IMG/VR virus record: IMGVR_UViG_3300032304_001168
Length of the DNA stretch: 64,000 bases
Source of the DNA: a virus
Strand: one strand, 5' to 3'
The notes below the pieces were generated by a model that saw nothing but the letters and a program-made list of their open reading frames with translations, was not told the origin of the DNA and searched no databases. How positions within the stretch are numbered: the stretch's first letter is position 1; every line of letters starts with the position of its first letter. Shown one piece after another: positions 287 through 55,373 of this stretch. The position numbers and the translations under genes are program-made.

Positions 287-1087
287 TTAAATAGGTAAAT
301 TTATTTTACTTAATAACTGATTTGAAACGTGTGTATAAATTTCAGTTGTTTTAACATTATTATGACCTGCAATCTTTTGAATTATTCTCAAATCCGTTCC
401 ATTTTCTAATAAATTGGTGAAACAAGAATGTCTGAGTTGATGAATATGATATTCTTTACCTAAGTATTGCTTTACAATTTTATTACAACTCCCAAAACTA
501 TATTTTAGATTATTTTGACCATTGAATAGATGGGTGATTGGTTTATATTCTTTATAATATTCTCTTAGAAGTTGTAGGATATTTTGTGATAGTGGAACAA
601 TCCTATCTTTTCTACCTTTGGCATTTTTGATATGGATAATCATTCTTTTGGAATCAATATCTTCAATTTTGAGATTGACTACTTCTGACACTCTTAGACC
701 TACTGAAAATGTTAGTGATAGTAGTGTCTTATGTTTTAGGTTTTTGATTTTGGAGAGTTGTTCTTTAATAAAATCACCATCAATAACTTTTGGAAGTTTC
801 TTTTCTGATTTAGGTCTTTTGAAACTTACTTTATCATATTTTTTATCCAATCCAAATTTATAGAGAAATCTGATTGCGTTAATGATTTGGTTTTGTTGAG
901 AAACTGAGGTGAAGTTATAGTTATCTAAATAAGATTGAAAATCTTGAGAGGTTAATCTAGTTGGTGATGTTTTATTATTTTCTAAAAACTGATTGATGTA
1001 AAAAAGATAGGACTTGATTGTCCTATCTGAGTAATTTAAGTATTTCAATTTTTGATTACAAATTTCGTAGTAATTTGTCTTTTTCAT
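287..1087 (-). CDS. tyrosine recombinase/integrase (integron-integrase-like N-terminal SAM domain, XerC/D-type catalytic domain)
   Basis: YSDRTIKSY N-terminal domain; GLRVSE, KGRKDR, HQLRH, AGHNNVKTTEIY catalytic motifs (R-K-H-R-H-Y). Confidence 0.93.
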   Translation of the reverse strand: MKKTNYYEICNQKLKYLNYSDRTIKSYLFYINQFLENNKTSPTRLTSQDFQSYLDNYNFTSVSQQNQIINAIRFLYKFGLDKKYDKVSFKRPKSEKKLPKVIDGDFIKEQLSKIKNLKHKTLLSLTFSVGLRVSEVVNLKIEDIDSKRMIIHIKNAKGRKDRIVPLSQNILQLLREYYKEYKPITHLFNGQNNLKYSFGSCNKIVKQYLGKEYHIHQLRHSCFTNLLENGTDLRIIQKIAGHNNVKTTEIYTHVSNQLLSKINLPI

Positions 1088-2613: not shown

Positions 2614-2707
2614 ACATAACAAGGTGTATAAGAAAGTTTGCTATAAAGTTTAGTGGTAATTTGAAAGTTCATCTAAGCAAACCTTCTCATACACCCAAAC
2701 GTTATAC
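2614..2707 (+). repeat. attC-like site (94 bp type, near-identical to 49314-49407)
   Basis: ACATAAC-aa-GGTGTATaAGAAaGTTTGCT...AGCAAACcTTCTcATACACC-caaac-GTTATAC. Confidence 0.8.
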
Positions 2708-10135: not shown

Positions 10136-11494
10136 TTAATTTGTTCTTACGACAACAAAATTGTATCTATTGCCATCAGGTCCTGTTATATAAACATCAT
10201 CATAACTTCCATCATAACTTGATATTGTGCCAATACCATCATGATCAACAATATCTTCAGCGACTCCTCTCACATTAACATAATATTTGATATTATAATC
10301 CATGCCCATACTTTTTAACCAATAAACAGGGTCTTCCATAGCTCTTCTAACATTTTGACTTACTTTTTTTTCAATCATTTCCTCTGTTGGTTCATCGTCA
10401 GGTTCAATACTATCCAATTCGTTTTGTAATTCTTCTATTTGTTGTTCCAAGTCAGTAATTTCATCTTCCTCTTGCGTATTTTCTAATTGTTCTTGTAAAT
10501 CACTTATTTGATTCTCTAAAACTTCTTTTCTTTCCTCTTGTTCATCAGTTAGTTCATAATCGTCAGCAAAATAACTTTCTGGATCGTCTCTTATATCGTT
10601 ATCATAGAACTCCTCAATATATTCCCTAATACTATCTTCATCAAGATTACTCTCTATTAAACTTTGACTTATATCATCCAATCCAACATCATCCAATAAT
10701 TGTTCTGTATTTTCAATTGCCGCTTCATACATATCATCATATGTTCCAACCATATATTCTTCATTTCTCAATCCAATAACCTCAAAATTGTATAATGTTC
10801 CATAAGATTTATAATTTGTTGGAATTATATAATAAACATCAGCATAGTTTTCTTGTAATTCTTTTATTTCATCTTCTATACTATCTATTTCTTCATACAA
10901 TTCATCTCTTTCTTCAGAATCTGATTCTAATCCTCCTCCTTGTTGAATAAGCTCTTCTATTCTTTCTAATTTATTTTTTATTAATTCTTTGGTTTCTTCA
11001 TCCATTTCATCTAGTTTATTCTCACTAACTAAATGGTCAAATAAAGCATTTGCGGCCAATCCTTCTTCATCAATGTTTGGATTAGTCAAATCCCAATCAT
11101 TATCTTCTCTTCTTGATTCAGCATCATCCAATTTTTTTAACTCTTCTTGTCTAATTCTTTTAGCTTCAATTGGTGAGCCATAATCCGAGATATGTCCTTT
11201 AACTTGAACTCCCTCGACACTAGAAATATTTGTATCCCTTATATCCAAATTCCCATCAATATAAGCAATATTACCCAATGTTTTAATTGGTTTACCACTT
11301 AAATCCAAATTACCAGTAACATATAATTTTTTACCCTCAAAGAATTTTGGTTTTAAAGCCGCACTTGAATAAGATGCCAATTCCAATATATTCAATAGTT
11401 CTTCTGGGCTTATTTTATAATATTCCTCTTCTTGTTCTTTTATAACTTTAATCAAGTGTTTAAACTGACCTTGACTTAATATAATTTTTCTCAT
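10136..11494 (-). CDS. acidic hypothetical protein, putative virion/head-associated
   Basis: MRKIILSQGQFKHLIKVIKE leader; TATTTATA motif upstream; GNLDL repeats; coiled coils. Confidence 0.6.
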   Translation of the reverse strand: MRKIILSQGQFKHLIKVIKEQEEEYYKISPEELLNILELASYSSAALKPKFFEGKKLYVTGNLDLSGKPIKTLGNIAYIDGNLDIRDTNISSVEGVQVKGHISDYGSPIEAKRIRQEELKKLDDAESRREDNDWDLTNPNIDEEGLAANALFDHLVSENKLDEMDEETKELIKNKLERIEELIQQGGGLESDSEERDELYEEIDSIEDEIKELQENYADVYYIIPTNYKSYGTLYNFEVIGLRNEEYMVGTYDDMYEAAIENTEQLLDDVGLDDISQSLIESNLDEDSIREYIEEFYDNDIRDDPESYFADDYELTDEQEERKEVLENQISDLQEQLENTQEEDEITDLEQQIEELQNELDSIEPDDEPTEEMIEKKVSQNVRRAMEDPVYWLKSMGMDYNIKYYVNVRGVAEDIVDHDGIGTISSYDGSYDDVYITGPDGNRYNFVVVRTN

Positions 11495-16498: not shown

Positions 16499-17257
16499 TT
16501 AGTAGACAAATGTTTCGGCCAATTCCCAAAGTTTGGTGTTCATTTGGTTTGTTGCCATAATGTTTTTCAAACCTTTTAGGGATGTTTTGCGGCCAGTTTG
16601 ACTTATGTACTCAAGACCACCTCTAACAAATCTCTCCTGAAGGATATTGAATGTTGTCCAAAGGTCATCGTTGTTGTCTCCAAGTCTTTGAGGAGTAATC
16701 AATTCCTCCAATTCCTCATAATCAAGGAATGGTACTGAACCCATTCCCCACTTGATGATTGAAGCACTTTTTGCAAAGTCGATTTTCTCACCTTCGGTCA
16801 ACATTCTATCCATCATCTTATCAACTGAGTTTTGTATGATGGGGAGTTTCGTTGCAAAACTCTCGGTCAATCTTTTGACTTCTTCTGAGTCAAATCCCAT
16901 ATGTCTCACATTGAATTGCTCTGCTGTAGAAGTGGGCACAGTCAAACCATTGCTACATACAAGGCGGAATAATCCAGCACCCACTGTTAGAGTGGTCATA
17001 CCATTATGTGAGTTTTTAACAATGGCTTCAACCAAGGTGTCTCCAACCGCAGGTAGTTCACCATTTCTAAATCTCAATTCGTGTATACCATAAAGACCAG
17101 TACCATTCTGTTTTACGGATTTAAGTTCCCAACCCTCGTTGGTGAATTTCTCCATAATATCAATCGTTGGTACGAATGAATATTTTTTAGACATTTTTGG
17201 GTCAGCTGAAGTTGTGAATACTGCTGGGGCGATAGACTTAATTTCTTGGATTGTCAT
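16499..17257 (-). CDS. DUF932/DUF945 family protein
   Basis: APAVF, YSFVPT, NSHNG, GLFRLVCSNGL, LWTTFNILQE. Confidence 0.85.
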   Translation of the reverse strand: MTIQEIKSIAPAVFTTSADPKMSKKYSFVPTIDIMEKFTNEGWELKSVKQNGTGLYGIHELRFRNGELPAVGDTLVEAIVKNSHNGMTTLTVGAGLFRLVCSNGLTVPTSTAEQFNVRHMGFDSEEVKRLTESFATKLPIIQNSVDKMMDRMLTEGEKIDFAKSASIIKWGMGSVPFLDYEELEELITPQRLGDNNDDLWTTFNILQERFVRGGLEYISQTGRKTSLKGLKNIMATNQMNTKLWELAETFVY

Positions 17258-17288
17258 ATTGTTATATTTTTATTGGTTAACGATGGGT

Positions 17289-17320
17289 CAAAATTACGGA
17301 TTAGATTTCTAATTTCCAAA
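17289..17320 (-). promoter_or_regulatory. Bacteroidota sigma70-type promoter
   Basis: TTTG-N20-TAATTTTG on the minus strand. Confidence 0.75.
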
Positions 17321-17335
17321 CTTTATTTACAAATC

Positions 17336-17473
17336 TTAAGAAAAAATTTCAACTTTGGTGGGTTTATAACCATAATTCATAATTATGGATGAAATCTCTC
17401 TGTCAGCCTCCTTTTCAGTCAATGGCTTTCTATTCAATTTAACATTTTGGTATTCCAAATTAAACATTTTCAT
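17336..17473 (-). CDS. small hypothetical protein (45 aa, not in ORF track)
   Basis: MKMFNLEYQNVKLNRKPLTEKEAD...VEIFS*. Confidence 0.5.
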   Translation of the reverse strand: MKMFNLEYQNVKLNRKPLTEKEADREISSIIMNYGYKPTKVEIFS

Positions 17474-17564
17474 ATTCTTTGATTTTTTATAAGGTTATTC
17501 AATCAGTCATCAATTATATAAACCATATCACCCCACCATTAGTTCCAAGATGATTGGATTTTTT

Positions 17565-17780
17565 TTAAAGAGCTTTAAAACTACTTAGGAACTCATTTTT
17601 GGTCATACATAATAGTAATTCATAACAACTAACCATACGGGTACTAAAACTAATTTCTTCAGTCAAGAAAGTAACCACATCACCTTTTTTGACTTTCCTA
17701 CCCAAAAGACCTCCACCTAATTTACGAATATACAAAAAGTTGGTATCTATTACTGCTTCAAATTTTTGTCCTTTTGTCAT
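17565..17780 (-). CDS. hypothetical protein
   Basis: ORF directly downstream of the promoter at 17811. Confidence 0.6.
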   Translation of the reverse strand: MTKGQKFEAVIDTNFLYIRKLGGGLLGRKVKKGDVVTFLTEEISFSTRMVSCYELLLCMTKNEFLSSFKAL

Positions 17781-17810
17781 AACATATATTTTTATTGGTT
17801 AACGATGGGT

Positions 17811-17842
17811 CAAAATTACAAACTACTTTTCTAATTTCCAAA
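17811..17842 (-). promoter_or_regulatory. Bacteroidota sigma70-type promoter (duplicate of the 17289 module)
   Basis: TTTG-N20-TAATTTTG; shares its downstream leader with 17264-17297. Confidence 0.75.
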
Positions 17843-35093: not shown

Positions 35094-35178
35094 ACATAAC
35101 AACAAATATAAGAAATAAATTTTGATTTATCTATTTTTTATAGGTAAAATTTACTTCTCATATTTGCAACCGTTAGCG
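35094..35178 (+). repeat. attC-like site (85 bp)
   Basis: ACATAAC-aa-CAAATATaAGAA...TTCTcATATTTG-caacc-GTTAGCG. Confidence 0.75.
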
Positions 35179-46253: not shown

Positions 46254-46898
46254 CTAAATCACAATTTCCCAACCTTTTTTCAAATAAAAATCTAAATCTT
46301 TTTCATCAATTTCTATTTCTCTTTCTAAATAAATTGTTTGTCTGCGATGTATATCCCCACATAGAACGATATCACATCCCTCAAATTTACTCACCTCATA
46401 TCCTGTTTCAAACTTATATCCAATGTCTGTATATAACCCTATAATAGGTCCGTGAAACAATCCAATTTTAAGGTTATTAGATTTCTCAATTGTTGGGGGA
46501 ATATTGTGTTCAAATAAAGAATATACAACCCAATCAATATTCTCATCAACATATACACCTCTATCTTTGTAATAGACAATGTTATCATTATTCATTGATT
46601 CAATGATGGGGGTTAATGTATCCAATCTTGATAAATTGTTCTCAAGCATATCATGATTTCCAACAATGATTATTGTTTTTGCAATCTTGGAACATTTATC
46701 TAATGTCCATCTAACCATTTCAATAAGTTCTGGGCTGACTTGGTTTTTACTATGGACTAGGTCGCCACTGAATACCAGTCTATCAGGTTTAATCTCTTTG
46801 AATTGATTAAACATATCAATCAATATTGATTTGTATAAATCGTGGTCTTTTATTAATCTCAAATGTAAATCAGAGAAGTGACAGATTGTTTTTATCAT
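46254..46898 (-). CDS. sbcD: SbcD/Mre11 (gp47-like) metallophosphoesterase N-terminal fragment
   Basis: SDLH, GDLVH, GNHD, FHG, GDIH. Confidence 0.9.
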   Translation of the reverse strand: MIKTICHFSDLHLRLIKDHDLYKSILIDMFNQFKEIKPDRLVFSGDLVHSKNQVSPELIEMVRWTLDKCSKIAKTIIIVGNHDMLENNLSRLDTLTPIIESMNNDNIVYYKDRGVYVDENIDWVVYSLFEHNIPPTIEKSNNLKIGLFHGPIIGLYTDIGYKFETGYEVSKFEGCDIVLCGDIHRRQTIYLEREIEIDEKDLDFYLKKGWEIVI

Positions 46899-47134
46899 TT
46901 CAGTTTTTGTTTTGATTTAATAATATTCACCAATTCTTCTTTTATTTCGTTTTGAATATCCTCATCAATATTTCCCCACCAACCATCAAAACCACCTCTA
47001 TCACATAGAGCATCAATAATTTCATTTACAATTTCTTTTTCCATTTTATTTATTTTTTTCTTCCATCAAATACAACAATCATACTAAATCAGAGAAGTGA
47101 CAGATTGTTTTTATCATTTCAGTTTTTGTTTTGA
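46866..47134 (+). repeat. 50-bp direct repeat (46866-46915 and 47085-47134) containing the sbcD start
   Basis: TAAATCAGAGAAGTGACAGATTGTTTTTATCATTTCAGTTTTTGTTTTGA present twice. Confidence 0.9.
46895..47044 (-). CDS. small hypothetical protein (49 aa, not in ORF track)
   Basis: MEKEIVNEIIDALCDRGGFDGWWGNIDEDIQNEIKEEL...; ATGA-coupled to sbcD. Confidence 0.6.
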   Translation of the reverse strand: MEKEIVNEIIDALCDRGGFDGWWGNIDEDIQNEIKEELVNIIKSKQKLK

Positions 47135-47154
47135 ATTTCGTAATAGTTTCCCAT
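47134..47154 (-). pseudogene. remnant of integrase 5' end
   Basis: MGNYYEI versus MKKTNYYEI of 287-1087, with homologous upstream DNA. Confidence 0.65.
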
Positions 47155-47194
47155 TTTTACCTCTTAAATCATTGATTATTTGAGGTTTTAAAAT

Positions 47195-47219
47195 AGGTGT
47201 TGATATATTATAGTTATAC
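47195..47219 (+). other. attI-like site 3
   Basis: AGGTGTTGATATATTATAGTTATAC, one mismatch to 1121-1145. Confidence 0.75.
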
Positions 47220-47231
47220 TCAATTAAAAAA

Positions 47232-47378
47232 TTATTTTGAGTTATATAATATATTCCATTCAGTATATGTATTTGATAATAATTCTTCTATTGTAATCCC
47301 AAATCTTATACAATCACCTAAACATATTTTGTAAAAATTCACACTTCTTTCGTTTATTATATATTCTGAAAATGTCAT
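47232..47378 (-). CDS. cassette ORF, hypothetical (48 aa, not in ORF track)
   Basis: MTFSEYIINERSVNFYKICLG...ILYNSK*. Confidence 0.6.
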   Translation of the reverse strand: MTFSEYIINERSVNFYKICLGDCIRFGITIEELLSNTYTEWNILYNSK

Positions 47379-47416
47379 ATTTGTATTTTTAATTTGTAAA
47401 ATAATTTTTTAACTAA

Positions 47417-47470
47417 GTATAACAAAGTGTAAAAAACATTAAAACTATTTTTTACACTCAACCGTTATGT
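47417..47470 (+). repeat. attC-like site (54 bp type)
   Basis: GTATAAC-aa-AGTGTAAAAAA-cattaaaacta-TTTTTTACACT-caacc-GTTATGT. Confidence 0.8.
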
Positions 47471-47474
47471 GTAA

Positions 47475-47792
47475 TTAAACAGAGAAACCCTCGTTAATCA
47501 AATATTTTGTTATTGAATGATGGTTGCTCAATGGTCTGTGTTCAATTGAAATATGTCCTTTGTTGTTTTTCCAAGTCCAAGTATGGTCAACTTCTAATTC
47601 TGAATTTACAGATAAACCATATTCAATTGTATGATAGTTATCAGATACAACACAATCTTCTACTTTAAATACAGCAATAATAAAATCTTTTTCAGGTGTC
47701 CATTCAACTTTACCAGCATTACAAGGTTTTCCGATAATCAAAGAGTATATCTGATTAATGTTTTCTATTGTTAAATCTTTTATCGTTTTCAT
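47475..47792 (-). CDS. cassette ORF, hypothetical
   Basis: MKTIKDLTIEN...; start chosen downstream of the attC-borne promoter. Confidence 0.65.
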   Translation of the reverse strand: MKTIKDLTIENINQIYSLIIGKPCNAGKVEWTPEKDFIIAVFKVEDCVVSDNYHTIEYGLSVNSELEVDHTWTWKNNKGHISIEHRPLSNHHSITKYLINEGFSV

Positions 47793-47816
47793 AAATTTTT
47801 CGTTTAAATTAACTAC

Positions 47817-47910
47817 ACATAACAAGGTGTATATGTAATTTTTTTACAAAGGTACGAATAAGTTTTGACATTTCCAAATAAAAAACTACATATACACCCA
47901 TACGTTATAA
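47817..47910 (+). repeat. attC-like site with internal promoter
   Basis: ACATAAC-aa-GGTGTATATGTA...TACATATACACC-catac-GTTATAA. Confidence 0.8.
47847..47878 (-). promoter_or_regulatory. Bacteroidota promoter inside attC loop
   Basis: TTTG-N20-TACCTTTG. Confidence 0.75.
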
Positions 47911-47922
47911 GCAATATTATTT

Positions 47923-48165
47923 TTATTTTGAGTATCTATTTTTAAAATCCTCAAATGCTTCTAAAATTGTGTTTCCCACACCATAGTTCACATGTTCCCA
48001 TTCTTCTTTCATAAAGTGATGTGGGTCATATTGCCACTCTTCGTTTCCTTCAAGTGAGTTTACACAATCAGCATCACAACATGTTTCTACAATAGCAAAT
48101 TTACCGTGTCTCATGTGAACTATGGTCATTGGGTAAATGTCTTCAATTTTGTTTATATTCTTCAT
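47923..48165 (-). CDS. cassette ORF, hypothetical
   Basis: 80 aa between cassette inverted repeats. Confidence 0.65.
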   Translation of the reverse strand: MKNINKIEDIYPMTIVHMRHGKFAIVETCCDADCVNSLEGNEEWQYDPHHFMKEEWEHVNYGVGNTILEAFEDFKNRYSK

Positions 48166-48207
48166 AATTTTAAGTTTTTTAAATCGGTAAAATAAAAATA
48201 ATACAGC

Positions 48208-48261
48208 TTATAACAACAAATATATTGCATTAAAACGACAATATATTTGCAACCGTTATGT
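48208..48261 (+). repeat. attC-like site (54 bp type)
   Basis: TTATAAC-aa-CAAATATATTG-cattaaaacga-CAATATATTTG-caacc-GTTATGT. Confidence 0.8.
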
Positions 48262-48278
48262 GTAATAAAAAATAACTA

Positions 48279-48482
48279 TCAAACCTCGTTTCCATCATCA
48301 AAGATTGTAAAACACGATTTGTCTGATAAAGTCACCTTATATCCAACATATCCACCATCTGCAAAAATGTGCAAGTCTGTTATCCATTCATCAGTTGCAC
48401 CTTTTTCATCTAATTTGCTTTGTATTTTCACTCTTGCTGCATCGTGTTTTACAAAGTCTAATGTTATTCTATTTGCCCACAT
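48279..48482 (-). CDS. cassette ORF, hypothetical
   Basis: 67 aa between cassette inverted repeats. Confidence 0.65.
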   Translation of the reverse strand: MWANRITLDFVKHDAARVKIQSKLDEKGATDEWITDLHIFADGGYVGYKVTLSDKSCFTIFDDGNEV

Positions 48483-48517
48483 ATTATTAAGTTTAGTTTA
48501 AGTTATTTTTTACATAC

Positions 48518-48610
48518 ACATAACAAGGTGTATATGTAATTTTTTACAAAAGTACGAATAAGTTTTGACATTTCCAAATAAAAAACTACATATACACCCA
48601 ACCGTTAGCA
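48518..48610 (+). repeat. attC-like site with internal promoter (near-identical to 47817-47910)
   Basis: same stem; loop contains minus-strand TTTG-N20-TACTTTTG at 48547-48578. Confidence 0.8.
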
Positions 48611-48634
48611 CCAATACTACGAAAGTGCTTCGAT

Positions 48635-49252
48635 TTAAATTTCGTTTGGATTTTCATAGATTATTACTGGGATTTTTTTAATTTTTAATCTTTTTGCAGC
48701 TTCCCATCTATGATGTCCATCTAATATACCAAAATCATAATCAAGTAATATTGGTGGTAATTCATCACCATTTTTTAATTTCTTAATTATGTTCAATATA
48801 TTTTGTTCTTCTTGTTTTTCAGTTCCATATATTCTCGAATCATTGGTATCAATATATTTCAATTTACTCAAATATCTCCCAATCTCAATACCTCTCGTAT
48901 CACTCCACAAATATTTTTGTTTATTAACCAAATCTGTGTCAGTATTATACACCAAATCTGGTTTCTTTTCTTTTGGTTGTTTTAATTTTGGTTCAATTTT
49001 TATACCTTTTTTGGTTTCAACAAAATTGAAAAGATTTATAATATCACTTGGATTATCTTCACCAAATATTTTGCTAAATTGTTTATTATTATGCTCAACG
49101 GCACGATTCACATCATTGTATGCAGTCTCCAAATCTTTATAGTATCTATCTTTAAAAGATGAATACCACCCATACATTTTTTTTACATCTAAATCTTGGC
49201 TTTCATTAAGATATTCTCTTATTGTAGTTGCTATAAATTTTCTCAATTCCAT
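48635..49252 (-). CDS. cassette ORF: ParB/Srx-like domain protein with ...YLNE leader
   Basis: LPPILLD...ILDGHHRWEAAKRL...IPVI. Confidence 0.75.
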   Translation of the reverse strand: MELRKFIATTIREYLNESQDLDVKKMYGWYSSFKDRYYKDLETAYNDVNRAVEHNNKQFSKIFGEDNPSDIINLFNFVETKKGIKIEPKLKQPKEKKPDLVYNTDTDLVNKQKYLWSDTRGIEIGRYLSKLKYIDTNDSRIYGTEKQEEQNILNIIKKLKNGDELPPILLDYDFGILDGHHRWEAAKRLKIKKIPVIIYENPNEI

Positions 49253-49313
49253 GTTCTTTTACTTTATATATAAATATTCCAAAATTAAATTTTTGCTAAA
49301 CAAACCGTACTGG

Positions 49314-49407
49314 TGCTAACAAGGTGTATAAGAAAGTTTGCTATCAATATTTGTGGTAATTTGAGAGTTCATCTAAGCAAACCTTCTAATACACCCAACC
49401 GTTAGCA
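49314..49407 (+). repeat. attC-like site (94 bp type)
   Basis: TGCTAAC-aa-GGTGTAT...ATACACC-caacc-GTTAGCA. Confidence 0.8.
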
Positions 49408-49419
49408 GTAATATTGTGG

Positions 49420-49659
49420 CTACTTCCCAATTGGTCTATTACAAGTTGCACAGATATAACTACCATTCATTAAATAACATTGAGATTGCTGACAGCCACA
49501 ATACATACTGCTAACATCGGCTATACGCAAGTTTTTTGCTTCCGTTAGTCGGTTAATAACATTGTTTGCCTCTATCAACATTTCAATCAATTTGTCTTTT
49601 TCTATCATTTGATACATCTCTACTTTTTCAGAGTGTGTCATTTCAATTACTTGCATCAT
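49420..49659 (-). CDS. cassette ORF starting inside its attC loop; C-terminal Cys-rich zinc finger
   Basis: KNLRIADVSS encoded by the attC arm; CGC...CATC. Confidence 0.65.
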   Translation of the reverse strand: MMQVIEMTHSEKVEMYQMIEKDKLIEMLIEANNVINRLTEAKNLRIADVSSMYCGCQQSQCYLMNGSYICATCNRPIGK

Positions 49660-49722
49660 ATATTTTAATTTTAGTGTTTCAAATTCGCAAAAAACCTGAC
49701 GTATAGCCGAGAACCGTTATAG
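49509..49722 (+). repeat. attC-like site with long coding loop (214 bp)
   Basis: TGCTAAC-a-TCGGCTATACG-CAAGTTTTTTGC...GCAAAAAACCTG-a-CGTATAGCCGA-gaacc-GTTATAG. Confidence 0.75.
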
Positions 49723-49980
49723 ATAATAAGCATCCAACACACTTTCAATATAACCTATTGATATGTGTATTTTAACTAAATCATCATATGTTTTTATACG
49801 TTCAAAAAATTCCTCTTTATTCAACCACTCCACATAGAAACCACCTTCATGTAAATTCATACAATATCCATCATATTCCGTATAAAAACTATCTAACAGC
49901 TTACTATCTATAACATCAGATATATGTAATTTTTCATTACTCTTATCTAAGTTTTGTTCTAAATTTTTATCTTCTTTCAT
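49717..49980 (-). CDS. cassette ORF starting inside its attC loop
   Basis: KLHISDVIDS encoded by the attC arm; stop codon in the GTTA core. Confidence 0.65.
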   Translation of the reverse strand: MKEDKNLEQNLDKSNEKLHISDVIDSKLLDSFYTEYDGYCMNLHEGGFYVEWLNKEEFFERIKTYDDLVKIHISIGYIESVLDAYYL

Positions 49981-50027
49981 CTTATTAAATTTTGTGTTAA
50001 AACTACATATATCTGTAACCGTTATAA
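49908..50027 (+). repeat. attC-like site with coding loop (120 bp)
   Basis: CTATAAC-at-CAGATATATGTA...TACATATATCTG-taacc-GTTATAA. Confidence 0.8.
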
Positions 50028-50031
50028 AACA

Positions 50032-50682
50032 TTATAAACGACCACCCCACTCAAATCTAACATATTCAACTTTAAAATCAACATCGTAAATCTCTTTTAG
50101 TAAATTTACAGCATATTGTTCATAACTACAATTCTTATCATATTCTAAACGATGTTGATTATCGTTTACTTCCATTGTCATATGTTCACCTTCGAAACTA
50201 TGACTTTCAATAAATTTGATTTCCATATTTTTAATTTTTCTTCCATCAAATACAACAATCATACTATCTTTTGTACCACTTTGTACTTTACCCTTTGAAT
50301 TTACAGGATAATAAAAATTACCATCATTGTCAACTTTCCCAAATTTAATCCTCCCCCTTACAAATTCAATTTCAGTCGCATTTGGTTTAATATAATCGTG
50401 AAATAACTTTGTGGAGGTGGAAACTGGTATCAAAAATACACAAACTTTTCCCTTCTTCATCTCCTCAATCCCTTTCTTAATAAAGGCCTCCTTTAACTTC
50501 TGACTATATGGGGGATTTATGAAAGTTGACATCCCCCATTCAATATTTAAACCATCAATATCAACATCCTTTTCATTATATGGACAAGGGTCAAAATCAA
50601 ATTTAAACCTCTTATTTAACTCCTCATAAAATTCTGGGGGTGTTGCATAATTATCATCATTATTAATGTGAATCTTTTTCAT
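50032..50682 (-). CDS. phage DNA N6-adenine methyltransferase (Dam-like), apparently fused to a downstream small ORF
   Basis: YATP, FDFDPC, FINPPYS, LIPVST, RGRIKF; extra MEIKFIES... tail. Confidence 0.85.
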   Translation of the reverse strand: MKKIHINNDDNYATPPEFYEELNKRFKFDFDPCPYNEKDVDIDGLNIEWGMSTFINPPYSQKLKEAFIKKGIEEMKKGKVCVFLIPVSTSTKLFHDYIKPNATEIEFVRGRIKFGKVDNDGNFYYPVNSKGKVQSGTKDSMIVVFDGRKIKNMEIKFIESHSFEGEHMTMEVNDNQHRLEYDKNCSYEQYAVNLLKEIYDVDFKVEYVRFEWGGRL

Positions 50683-50906
50683 TAGAACAATTCAAAATCT
50701 TTGTTTATGTGACCACAATCGTCACAACGATATGTTGGGAATGGTACTAATGTGTCCTCCAAACTACCAGTAAATAGTTTTGATACCTTTTTAATCATAA
50801 CCACTTCTTTGAAGTACTTTGAACCACATTCTTCACAAGTAACGGTGGGCTGTTCTTTTAAATCAATCTTTGGTAAACTCTTTTCCGTATTAATTAAATT
50901 ATCCAT
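50682..50906 (-). CDS. zinc-ribbon protein
   Basis: CEECG...CDDCG. Confidence 0.7.
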   Translation of the reverse strand: MDNLINTEKSLPKIDLKEQPTVTCEECGSKYFKEVVMIKKVSKLFTGSLEDTLVPFPTYRCDDCGHINKDFELF

Positions 50907-53300: not shown

Positions 53301-55373
53301 ATGAGTTGTTTTTGTCCATTGGGTTATACCCCAACCATAGATTATGATGATTGTATTAATACCTTAACTGCCGCGACAAGTGGGGGTACATATTTTTATA
53401 CCGCAACAACTGGGAGTCAAAGTGGTTCATTTTGTAATTTAGGTACAATATTTTATGAAGATATAACAAATCTTTCATTCCCAATTACCAATTCAGGAAC
53501 AACAACATCTGCATTCACTCAAAATGGTACATTACTTTTTAATACAGAGTTCTTAGTAGATAATAGTGGAAGGGTTTTAAATATTCAAGCTGGGGGTCAA
53601 GGTGGTGGTTATTCTGGTTGTTTTGGCGGGATATCCCCGTACTATGGTCCACCAAACTTACAAAATTCATTGTGGGGTTCTGGTAGTACAACATCTGGTA
53701 GATTAAATGTTGCAGGTATTTTTGCAACCACTAATCCTAATCCTATTAATGAATGGATTGGTTTTTCATATTGTTTAGACATTCCTATCAAAGGAACTTA
53801 TTTTATTGGATTTGCGGCTGATGATTTAACTAGAATAAAAATAAATGGTGATTTAATATATGAAACATCCACAATAAATTATTGTAATTCAATACCCCAA
53901 ACATTGAATACTAATACTTGGACAATACTCCCATTTGCGTTTAACTCTGGGTTAAATATTGTTGAAATGGAAGGTTTAAACCTTGGGTCTAGTGCCGCAT
54001 TTGCCGCTGAAATATATTCAGGTTCAGTTGCAACACTTAGTGCTTATACCACAACAATACAATTAACTGCAGATACATTATTTAGTACTTTAGATTTTAT
54101 TGGTCAAGATATCCCCTTAACAAGTTCAATAACTGGTGGTACTTCTAATACTGGTTATACTTGTCCAAGTGGTTATACATTATACACTTGTAGTGGAACA
54201 CCATATTGTATTCAAATTGATAGAGTTGGTTTAATTAAATTCTGTATTAGTGATACTGGATTAGGTTATGATGATAATTTTTCGTTATCAGGCACATACA
54301 ATTCAGAACCATATTGGACTGGTGATACTAGCGGTAGATTTATTTATTTAACCTCAAGTGGTTATTGGTGTTTATCAGATTCTTTGGGGGGTACTTGTCT
54401 TTTGGAAGGTGCTTATCCATGCCCATCAACTTGTCCTGATTTATGTGATTCTTATTTCAATGAAGGTATTTGTCCAACACCAACTCCAACACCTACTGTT
54501 AATTGTTCCGTATTAGACTTTAACGCAATTTTTGATTGTGAGGTAACTCCAACACCAAGTATAACACCAACTAACACACCAACGCCAACTGTAACTCCTA
54601 CACCAAGTATTAGTGAACCTTGTGGGGGTAGGGCGGTTAATGTAACAATTACTGGTTATACACCAACACCAACACCGACCCCATCAATAACACCATCAAG
54701 TACACCTCAAATAACAAGACCTTGTAGTGTCTCTGGAAATGTTGTTTTTAATACAGTCCTTGGACTAATTGAATGCCCTAGTAGTAAAAAATTCATTGAT
54801 TGTGAAAATGGTAATTTATATTACGCATCCAATGCTCTTCCTTTACCTTCAGGTGGTACACTATCTCAATTATCAGTTTTCAAAGCTAATGTTGATGGTA
54901 TTTCAAGATGTATAACATATGTTGGTATAGACTTAACAATTAATGGTATGAATATTATTGAATTGGTTGATGGTCCTTTAGATTTTGATGCGGATTGTTC
55001 AGTTTGTGTTCCAAATGTAACTCAAACACCTACACCAACTCCAACACCATCAATTACTCCAACAATTACACCAACTCCAACCGCATCAGCTCTTGTTGGT
55101 TATTATTTATTCCAAAGATGTAACACAAATTCATATGTTATACAAACATTACCTGGTCCTACATCAGTAATTAACCAAGTATTTAGTTTAACTGATTATC
55201 CGTATTCAAATGAATGTTGGAAATATATCTCATATTCAAGTAGTTATCCATCATTACCATTAGGTTCAACATCGTCATTCTTATCAGGTAATAGTTTTCA
55301 AAGTTTGGGTGTTTTTTATTATTCAGATTGTAGTGAATGTATTGCAATAGTTGGGGATTCTGGTGAGTTATAA
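53301..55373 (+). CDS. putative virion/fiber protein with PA14-like domain and Thr-Pro repeats
   Basis: [11 protein letters not shown]...IKING; three TPTPT tracts; Cys-rich. Confidence 0.6.

Follow-up and report, generated by a model that had tools for sequence, protein, structure and literature searches.

What are the hairpins that separate the small genes of a large phage, and can the promoter-like sequence in some of their loops serve the genes that follow? The question is raised by the virus record IMGVR_UViG_3300032304_001168 of IMG/VR, from which a stretch of 64,000 nucleotides (nt; hereafter the window) was analysed, and in which small minus-strand open reading frames (ORFs) at 47.2-50.0 kb are separated by hairpins of one fixed geometry. 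Sequence comparison makes it probable that these hairpins are the recombination sites of a phage-borne, integron-like cassette system with a short Xer-type recombinase, and that the loop in question is a complete sigma-A promoter. We infer that the recombinase acts on these hairpins and that transcription starts from the loops.

Hairpins with a predicted promoter in the loop

Read on the coding strand, each hairpin consists of xxTAAC, 5 nt (usually GGTTG), an arm of 11-12 nt, a loop, the complementary arm, 2 nt (usually TT) and GTTAxx. A script search found ten hairpins of this geometry in the window, all oriented with the genes and with loops of 11 to ~170 nt. Two of them carry the promoter. 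Hairpin A (47820..47907, minus strand) is built of TAAC, GTATG, a 12-nt arm, the loop, a 12-nt arm, TT and GTTA, and hairpin B (48521..48607, minus strand) has the same stem with GGTTG as its 5-nt spacer. The two share the arms GGTGTATATGTA (5') and TACATATACACC (3') and are ~91% identical overall, and near-identical copies of hairpin A are present in other viral contigs. When they are folded as single-stranded DNA, the stem runs on through a T-run and an A-run to 19-20 base pairs, flanked by the 5-nt and 2-nt spacers, with energies of -15.4 kcal/mol for hairpin A (z -4.45) and -15.3 kcal/mol for hairpin B (z -4.71). What remains unpaired is a loop of ~33 nt, which is almost base for base the promoter.

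The primary-sigma consensus of Bacteroidota is TAnnTTTG at -7 and TTTG at -33 (PMC7366714, PMC2483708, PMC9723704), and the -33 box is required for full promoter strength (PMC7366714, PMC2483708). Promoter A, TTTG-N20-TACCTTTG (47878-47847, minus strand), matches this consensus exactly, with the -33 TTTG at 47878-47875 and the -7 box at 47854-47847. Promoter B, TTTG-N20-TACTTTTG (48578-48547, minus strand), has its boxes at 48578-48575 and 48554-48547, and in its -7 box, TAnnTTTG, one of the free 'nn' positions is not the same as in promoter A. Both TACCTTTG and TACTTTTG fit the sigma-A -7 box, which is invariant in 10 of the 11 aligned family members, and the -33 TTTG lies 20 nt before it (19 nt in one relative). 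Since the -7 box of Flavobacterium psychrophilum spans -12 to -5 (PMC9723704), the G of TTTG would fall at -33 and transcription would be expected to start near 47842 (A) and near 48542 (B).

Downstream of each loop, on the same strand, an A-rich leader without a Shine-Dalgarno sequence leads to an ATG. Cassette ORF A (47792-47475, minus strand) encodes 105 amino acids, belongs to no Pfam family and has its start codon, here placed at the ATG at 47792, 54 nt past the -7 box. Cassette ORF B (48482-48279, minus strand) encodes 67 amino acids and begins 64 nt past the -7 box. A preliminary description of the locus had taken the loops of the hairpins at 47817-47910 and 48518-48610 for a near-exact Bacteroidota promoter, with each copy pointing into its own, unrelated cassette ORF. 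The hairpins delimited here (47820-47907 and 48521-48607), with TTTG-N20-TA(C)(C/T)TTTG on the minus strand, bear this out, and the two ORFs are indeed unrelated (BLASTP E = 11). The start sites predicted above also agree with those it had proposed.

Two short promoterless hairpins alternate with the promoter hairpins along the array. One (48211..48258, minus strand; 11-nt loop) heads the next cassette toward an attI-like end, with ORF 48165-47923, and the other (47420..47467, minus strand) lies downstream of promoter A and heads the last cassette before the attI-like junction described below. In two further hairpins (49911-50024 and 49512-49719, minus strand) the loop contains the start codon of the ORF that follows, so that the 3' arm and the GTTA core would be translated. 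Far from both arrays of the window, at 35097-35175 (minus strand), there is a single isolated hairpin of the 64-nt class.

Recombinase and cassette boundaries

A second hairpin array (1139-2950) is bounded downstream by the gene of an intact tyrosine recombinase of 266 amino acids (287..1087, minus strand), which matches the Pfam families Phage_integrase (5.7e-34) and Phage_int_SAM_4 (1.3e-13). Its best solved relatives are a XerC-like protein (4a8e, 3.2e-39) and XerA, and the match to IntI4 (2a3v) falls into two separate stretches; the partner enzyme of the hairpins thus appears to be a short Xer-type recombinase, not IntI. At the downstream end of the 47.2-50.0 kb array the recombinase gene is truncated. 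When read against the intact copy (1060-1142), the segment 47134..47218 (minus strand) keeps the attI-like junction (…TATAAC then TATAATATATCAACACC…) and, of the recombinase gene, no more than the initial few codons. A 53-nt direct repeat with 98% identity (46866-46918 and 47085-47137), in which the start region of a metallophosphatase gene is duplicated, adjoins this truncated start and marks the deletion by which the array lost its recombinase.

At least 16 distinct contigs have a homologue of the recombinase (42-85% identity) immediately after a hairpin array and encoded on the same strand. In 16 distinct loci, a variable, cassette-type box ending in TAAC, followed by a conserved TAnn(A/T)TATAT…, is located 40-60 nt upstream of the recombinase start. 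The cassette break is placed at TAAC, because the variable sequence ends there and the platform sequence begins. The association of hairpins with neighbouring modules was measured by mutual information over 494 distinct hairpins, for which the boxes were taken as the 5 nt that follow the 3' GTTA and the box that leads up to the 5' TAAC. A strong association was found between hairpin family and the start box of the downstream module (z 15.7), whereas no association with the end box of the upstream module was found (z -0.1). Likewise, of the same-family pairs from different loci, 435 have only the 3' box in common and 62 have only the 5' box. Because this test and the attI-like junctions agree, the hairpin would travel with its downstream gene, which supports the statement of the preliminary description that each promoter points into the ORF of its own cassette. 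The sequence data support a cassette that consists of hairpin, GTTA box, ORF and TAAC box, in arrays that read toward the attI-like site and the recombinase.

The ends of the modules are mutually complementary over 9-26 nt, for example 47904-47929 with 48189-48214 (92%) and 47213-47238 with 47398-47423. In some cassettes, terminal inverted repeats of at least 26 nt extend well past TAAC/GTTA (47213-47238/47398-47423, 47904-47929/48189-48214 and 1139-1170/1372-1398), and cassettes with different coding sequences share such repeat pairs, and hence the 5' leader, both in the window and in the related loci L003, L015 and L034. Three presence/absence indels between close relatives were found, all outside arrays. 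Whole small genes are present in one relative and absent from another at L062 1743-2132 (against L098) and L069 677-842 (against L021), and their boundaries coincide with short repeats near start codons that belong to no hairpin array.

A different origin for such an arrangement is known from the PeSLs of T4-like phages (PMC2839356, PMC4122927), which recur between genes, combine a strong promoter of host type with a stem-loop, and precede small ORFans in the plastic parts of large phage genomes; their ORFs have been proposed to move with their own expression signal. The authors of these studies themselves likened PeSL cassettes to integrons (PMC2839356, PMC4122927). A PeSL-like element would insulate or terminate upstream transcription and restart it, and would be shuffled by homologous recombination instead of by a site-specific recombinase. 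Such composites lie between ORFans in T4-like phages, with ORF mini-circles arising by homologous exchange (PMC2839356), and hairpin copies of ~90 nt with 91% identity are enough for homologous recombination. However, PeSLs have sigma-70 promoters and a G/C-rich stem-loop beside, between or over the boxes that is a terminator, and a dedicated recombinase and core sites are not known there. The phage hairpins have an A/T-rich stem, the whole promoter in a 33-nt loop and no T-run after the stem that would give a U-tract; in 46800-50800, intrinsic terminators are not enriched and none is predicted on the coding strand. Moreover, the TAAC/GTTA cores and the 5-nt/2-nt asymmetry stay fixed while the stems covary and the loops differ completely, the module ends are complementary as in once-circular units, and a conserved recombinase and attI-like junction stand at the array end in the 16 loci. 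A purely PeSL-like element is therefore unlikely, although it is the best of the alternatives considered here.

Conservation of the promoter motif across related loci

The window holds 18 promoter motifs against 7.3 +/- 2.7 in shuffled sequence, and none of 100 shuffles reached 18. Being ~91% identical, hairpins A and B count as one independent event, so the statistical weight is carried by the related loci. In viral contigs an exact 21-mer taken from the loop occurs at 7 loci, and a 16-mer across the core and the stem start at no fewer than 118. A set of 121 loci (1.09 Mb) was searched by script and yielded 471 hairpins, 381 of them unique, and the strict promoter motif was counted in the 347 unique interiors of at most 125 nt. 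It is present on the coding strand of 13 of these 347 and on the opposite strand of 4, compared with 0.25 in shuffles (maximum 2), which corresponds to a strand-specific enrichment of ~50-fold.

An alignment of 11 distinct copies of the promoter hairpin separates the boxes from their surroundings. Minority bases occupy 2 of 110 cells at the ten consensus positions, both in locus L034, as against 4/22 at the 'nn' positions and 42/219 in the 20-nt spacer; the comparison of 2/110 with 46/241 for spacer and 'nn' together gives a Fisher p of 1.4e-6, which is indicative only, as the cells are not phylogenetically independent. The GAAAT that follows the -33 box is invariant in this alignment, and three stems, GGTGTATATGTA, CAAATAT(A/G)TGTA and GGTGTATGAGAAGG, stay paired by compensatory change. 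Such a pattern of conservation would be the signature of a working promoter. In L002, L005 and L008, where the 5' arm is degenerate and the 3' arm is lost, the 32-nt promoter is nevertheless identical, with an ATG 14 nt further on. In every hairpin copy that was examined for an ORF, a same-strand ORF starts 33-71 nt past the -7 box, and all 12 promoter-hairpin contexts listed have an ORF start close downstream, with coding sequences that differ. The conservation pattern, the downstream linkage and these differing coding sequences favour the earlier proposal that recombination site and promoter are fused into one portable part.

The promoter is also found without the hairpin. A search for the promoter alone (TTTGGAAAT-N14-16-TAYYTTTGTAAAA) returned 58 distinct contexts in viral contigs, 16 in hairpins and 42 outside them; most of the latter lie shortly upstream of an ATG, and many are in phages without any sign of an array. 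Because the loop sequence also precedes ordinary genes that have no hairpin, it represents a general promoter class and not a hairpin-specific signal. The window itself contains two non-hairpin promoters of this class (TTTGGAAAT…TAATTTTG; 17289..17842, minus strand, copies at 17289 and 17811), each ~30 nt upstream of an ordinary gene start. At 17250-17320 and 17770-17842 (minus strand), both of these TTTGGAAAT-class promoters are followed by the same 25-nt leader, ACCCATCGTTAACCAATAAAAATAT, which leads into a different gene in each case. In L285 (~10170-10260), a promoter of the class is followed after ~5 nt by what is, by appearance only, a transfer RNA (tRNA) gene.

Other loops have other contents. 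The commonest hairpin family is represented in the window at 49317-49404 and 2617-2704 (minus strand), and ~60 of its relatives are found in other loci. Its hairpins contain a second stem within the first, GGTTTGCT…AGCAAACT, and a loop motif of roughly AACTTTCAAATTA(C/A)CAC, which fits no sigma-A promoter. The possibility that AACTTTCAAATTA is a general phage promoter was considered and rejected, with 14 matches (at most two mismatches) in the window against 17.9 expected; matches in the window with at most one mismatch that fall inside a known element do so only in hairpins. A second promoter-bearing family with the stems CAAATATA…/…TATATTTG occurs in L127 (~1757, minus strand) and L134 (~4327, minus strand), where TATATTTG in the 3' arm of the stem supplies the -7 box. 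TTTG precedes it by 20 nt, and a short leader and an ATG come after it.

These data bear on the idea that the resemblance to a promoter is non-functional, being either a chance match in AT-rich DNA or a fossil promoter that was swept into a hairpin and is silent. At 28% G+C, ~7 motifs per window arise by chance, the two copies in the window represent a single duplication, and L034 has lost both boxes. However, the enrichment over shuffles is strand-specific, the boxes stay constant beside a variable spacer, the promoter outlasts the decayed hairpin, and an ORF start always lies at a promoter-appropriate distance, so that we consider a silent resemblance improbable. Least credible of all is that the recombinase or an accessory protein binds the TTTGGAAAT and TAYYTTTG blocks when the loop is single-stranded, and that these blocks form no promoter: the conserved, non-promoter-like loop motif of the dominant family (AACTTTCAAATTA…), not enriched outside hairpins in the window, implies that loops can carry hairpin-specific signals, but both blocks recur with the same spacing directly upstream of genes in the 42 hairpin-less contexts and match the published sigma-A consensus position for position.

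Several observations weigh against the interpretation of the hairpins as recombination sites with a working promoter in the loop. The promoter is present in a minority of hairpins (2 of the 10 in the window), most loops carrying the other conserved motif or a start codon. L034, in which both boxes are mutated, has kept its hairpin, and the promoter is thus not needed to keep the site. Part of the conservation reflects recent spread, many copies being close relatives with the same stem. In addition, the linkage of hairpin and downstream ORF is statistical, and the comparison of homologous modules is weak (6 versus 2 discordant pairs, with 16 pairs in which both hairpins differ). Finally, cruciform extrusion of the hairpin would destroy the promoter.

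Proposed mechanism of cassette expression

In the proposed system, the hairpin would form the 5' end of the cassette, upstream of its ORF, and the cassettes would be read toward the attI-like site. As the cassettes point toward the attI-like end, a promoter in the platform could not serve them, and the signals for expression would have to lie within the cassettes or upstream of them. Loops of this family vary freely, with lengths of 11 to more than 100 nt and contents that are unrelated. The loop, which would escape the constraint of pairing, would therefore be a natural site for a promoter, here one whose TTTG ends at -33 and whose TAnnTTTG spans -12 to -5. On double-stranded DNA, the polymerase of the host would begin transcription near the two predicted start sites, within the A-run that immediately precedes the 3' arm. 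The resulting transcript would run from the 3' arm through the GTTA core and a short A-rich leader into the ORF of that cassette; containing one arm only, it would form no hairpin.

The polymerase would probably continue into the next cassette toward the attI-like end, which is headed by a promoterless hairpin. That promoterless cassettes are driven in this way, as the preliminary description had suggested, is plausible because promoter and promoterless hairpins alternate and no terminator is predicted on the coding strand. By such read-through each promoter would plausibly serve two cassettes; read-through from promoter B could express ORF 48165-47923, and the last promoter may read into the position of the recombinase.

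Comparison with known systems

The preliminary description had called the hairpins attC sites. The likeness to integrons (PMC8876359) is considerable, as both have single-ORF units, imperfect palindromes with AAC…GTT cores, complementary unit ends, and a tyrosine recombinase and a hairpin-less platform site beside the arrays, and some integron cassettes have their own promoter. TAAC…GTTA occurs in every element of the phage arrays, and the 7-mers (e.g. ACATAAC and GTTATAA) match the RYYYAAC/GTTRRRY of R'' and R' only partly. However, attC sites have an unpaired central spacer and two extrahelical bases by which the recombined strand is marked, neither of which was seen in the phage hairpins, where a one-sided 3-nt bulge is followed by a continuous stem. 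The integron enzyme is IntI with an extra domain, whereas the phage enzyme has 266 amino acids and matches IntI4 in two stretches. A classical attC lies 3' of the ORF, in an array that is read away from attI from the promoter Pc; the phage hairpin lies 5' of the ORF, in an array read toward the attI-like site. With no IntI, no extrahelical pair, a site 5' of the ORF and no reading from a platform promoter, these hairpins are, judged from their sequence, integron-like and not integron attC sites. The label attC is an analogy; the recombinase is Xer-like, and the hairpins have a different geometry.

Known cassette promoters, such as those of the class 1 cmlA, qac and qnrVC cassettes and of toxin-antitoxin cassettes in chromosomal integrons, are located in the 5' untranslated region and not in the attC loop (PMC8876359). 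In Vibrionaceae superintegrons, gene-less cassettes supply promoters, and for a single cassette, F2, starts have been mapped even within attC; there, however, the promoters are dispersed in gene-less cassettes, the attC starts are considered possibly spurious, and no conserved promoter in an attC loop is described (PMC11014356). Phage CALINs are clusters of attC sites that lack an integrase; such attC-like sites and small cassette arrays are known from virulent phages, including a Polaribacter phage, but the sites were called by integron attC models and tested with IntI1; in the accessible portion of that report, the sole promoter mentioned lies in a toxin-antitoxin cassette, and a loop promoter, an Xer-type recombinase and a 5' hairpin are absent (PMC9892861). 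Group IIC-attC introns with outward promoters also place a promoter at the attC site that drives the following cassette, but this promoter arrives on the inserted intron, whereas in the phage hairpins it is part of the loop (PMC3001079).

PeSLs are the closest functional analogue and integrons the closest structural analogue. What sets the phage hairpins apart from PeSLs is the combination of a whole promoter in the loop, fixed cores and asymmetry, complementary module ends, and an Xer-type recombinase with an attI-like site. The system is a variant that is related to cassette-borne promoters and to PeSL composites and belongs to neither family. A description of this phage system was not found in a literature search.

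Genomic context and inferred host

The window is AT-rich (G+C ~28%), and nearly all of its genes as far as 53 kb are on the minus strand. Phage-like genes encode a primase domain, a Dam methyltransferase, the metallophosphatase, the tyrosine recombinase, a protein with a weak, sub-threshold ParB-like match and an SbcC-like protein (below the Pfam cut-off). An Rfam search of the window gave 0 hits, and no tRNA genes were found in it. When known phage records were searched in distant mode with 8 kb around the array, only a 116-nt match and gene-level hits were returned; the former is to another hairpin, carried by an uncultured phage of 462 kb. Inside an ORF of 690 amino acids (53301-55373), degenerate repeats with a period of 12 nt (ACNCCAAC-like; 54470-55085, plus strand) probably encode Thr/Pro-rich linkers.

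Among isolates, the recombinase is most closely related to the integrases of Cellulophaga and Polaribacter phages (37-40% identity). A Shine-Dalgarno signal is absent at the starts in the window (4/71, against a background of 8%), and leaders are A-rich throughout; Flavobacterium is likewise reported to lack Shine-Dalgarno sequences and to have A-rich leaders (PMC6847099). In 46800-50800, sigma-70-type motifs are not enriched (25 against 30 expected). The recombinase relatives, the A-rich leaders without Shine-Dalgarno sequences and the lack of sigma-70 enrichment together indicate that the host is probably a Bacteroidota bacterium. The 16-mer TAACGGTTGGGTGTAT was also scanned across 596 Gb of bacterial and archaeal genomes, in which it occurs at 120 loci; by arithmetic, a few hundred occurrences of a 16-mer are expected by chance. 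These loci were rejected as evidence on the host, as only ~30 are true hairpins, mostly on short contigs of metagenome bins with mixed taxonomy.

Implications for phage cassette systems

Classical integron cassettes rely on one platform promoter, and their expression falls with distance. The expression of distal cassettes and the initial assembly of cassettes are questions of long standing, and the phage sequence shows a different solution. With a full promoter in the loop, the only part of the recombination hairpin that need not pair, a captured gene would be self-expressing wherever it is inserted. The ~90-bp element is a candidate recombination substrate and, at the same time, a candidate strong Bacteroidota promoter, and folding into a cruciform or a single-stranded hairpin should silence that promoter. 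The recombinase-associated cassette system is present in well over a hundred viral contigs and may be a common route by which large phages acquire accessory genes and express them immediately.

More tentatively, a widespread family of large phages, probably of Bacteroidota, may possess an integron-like system of inverted logic, in which the hairpin heads the cassette, the loop is an exchangeable expression slot that holds a sigma-A promoter, another motif or a start codon with its leader, and extrusion could switch the promoter off. If this is true, site-specific recombination in these phages would move a gene together with its expression programme, and extrusion would couple recombination to transcription.

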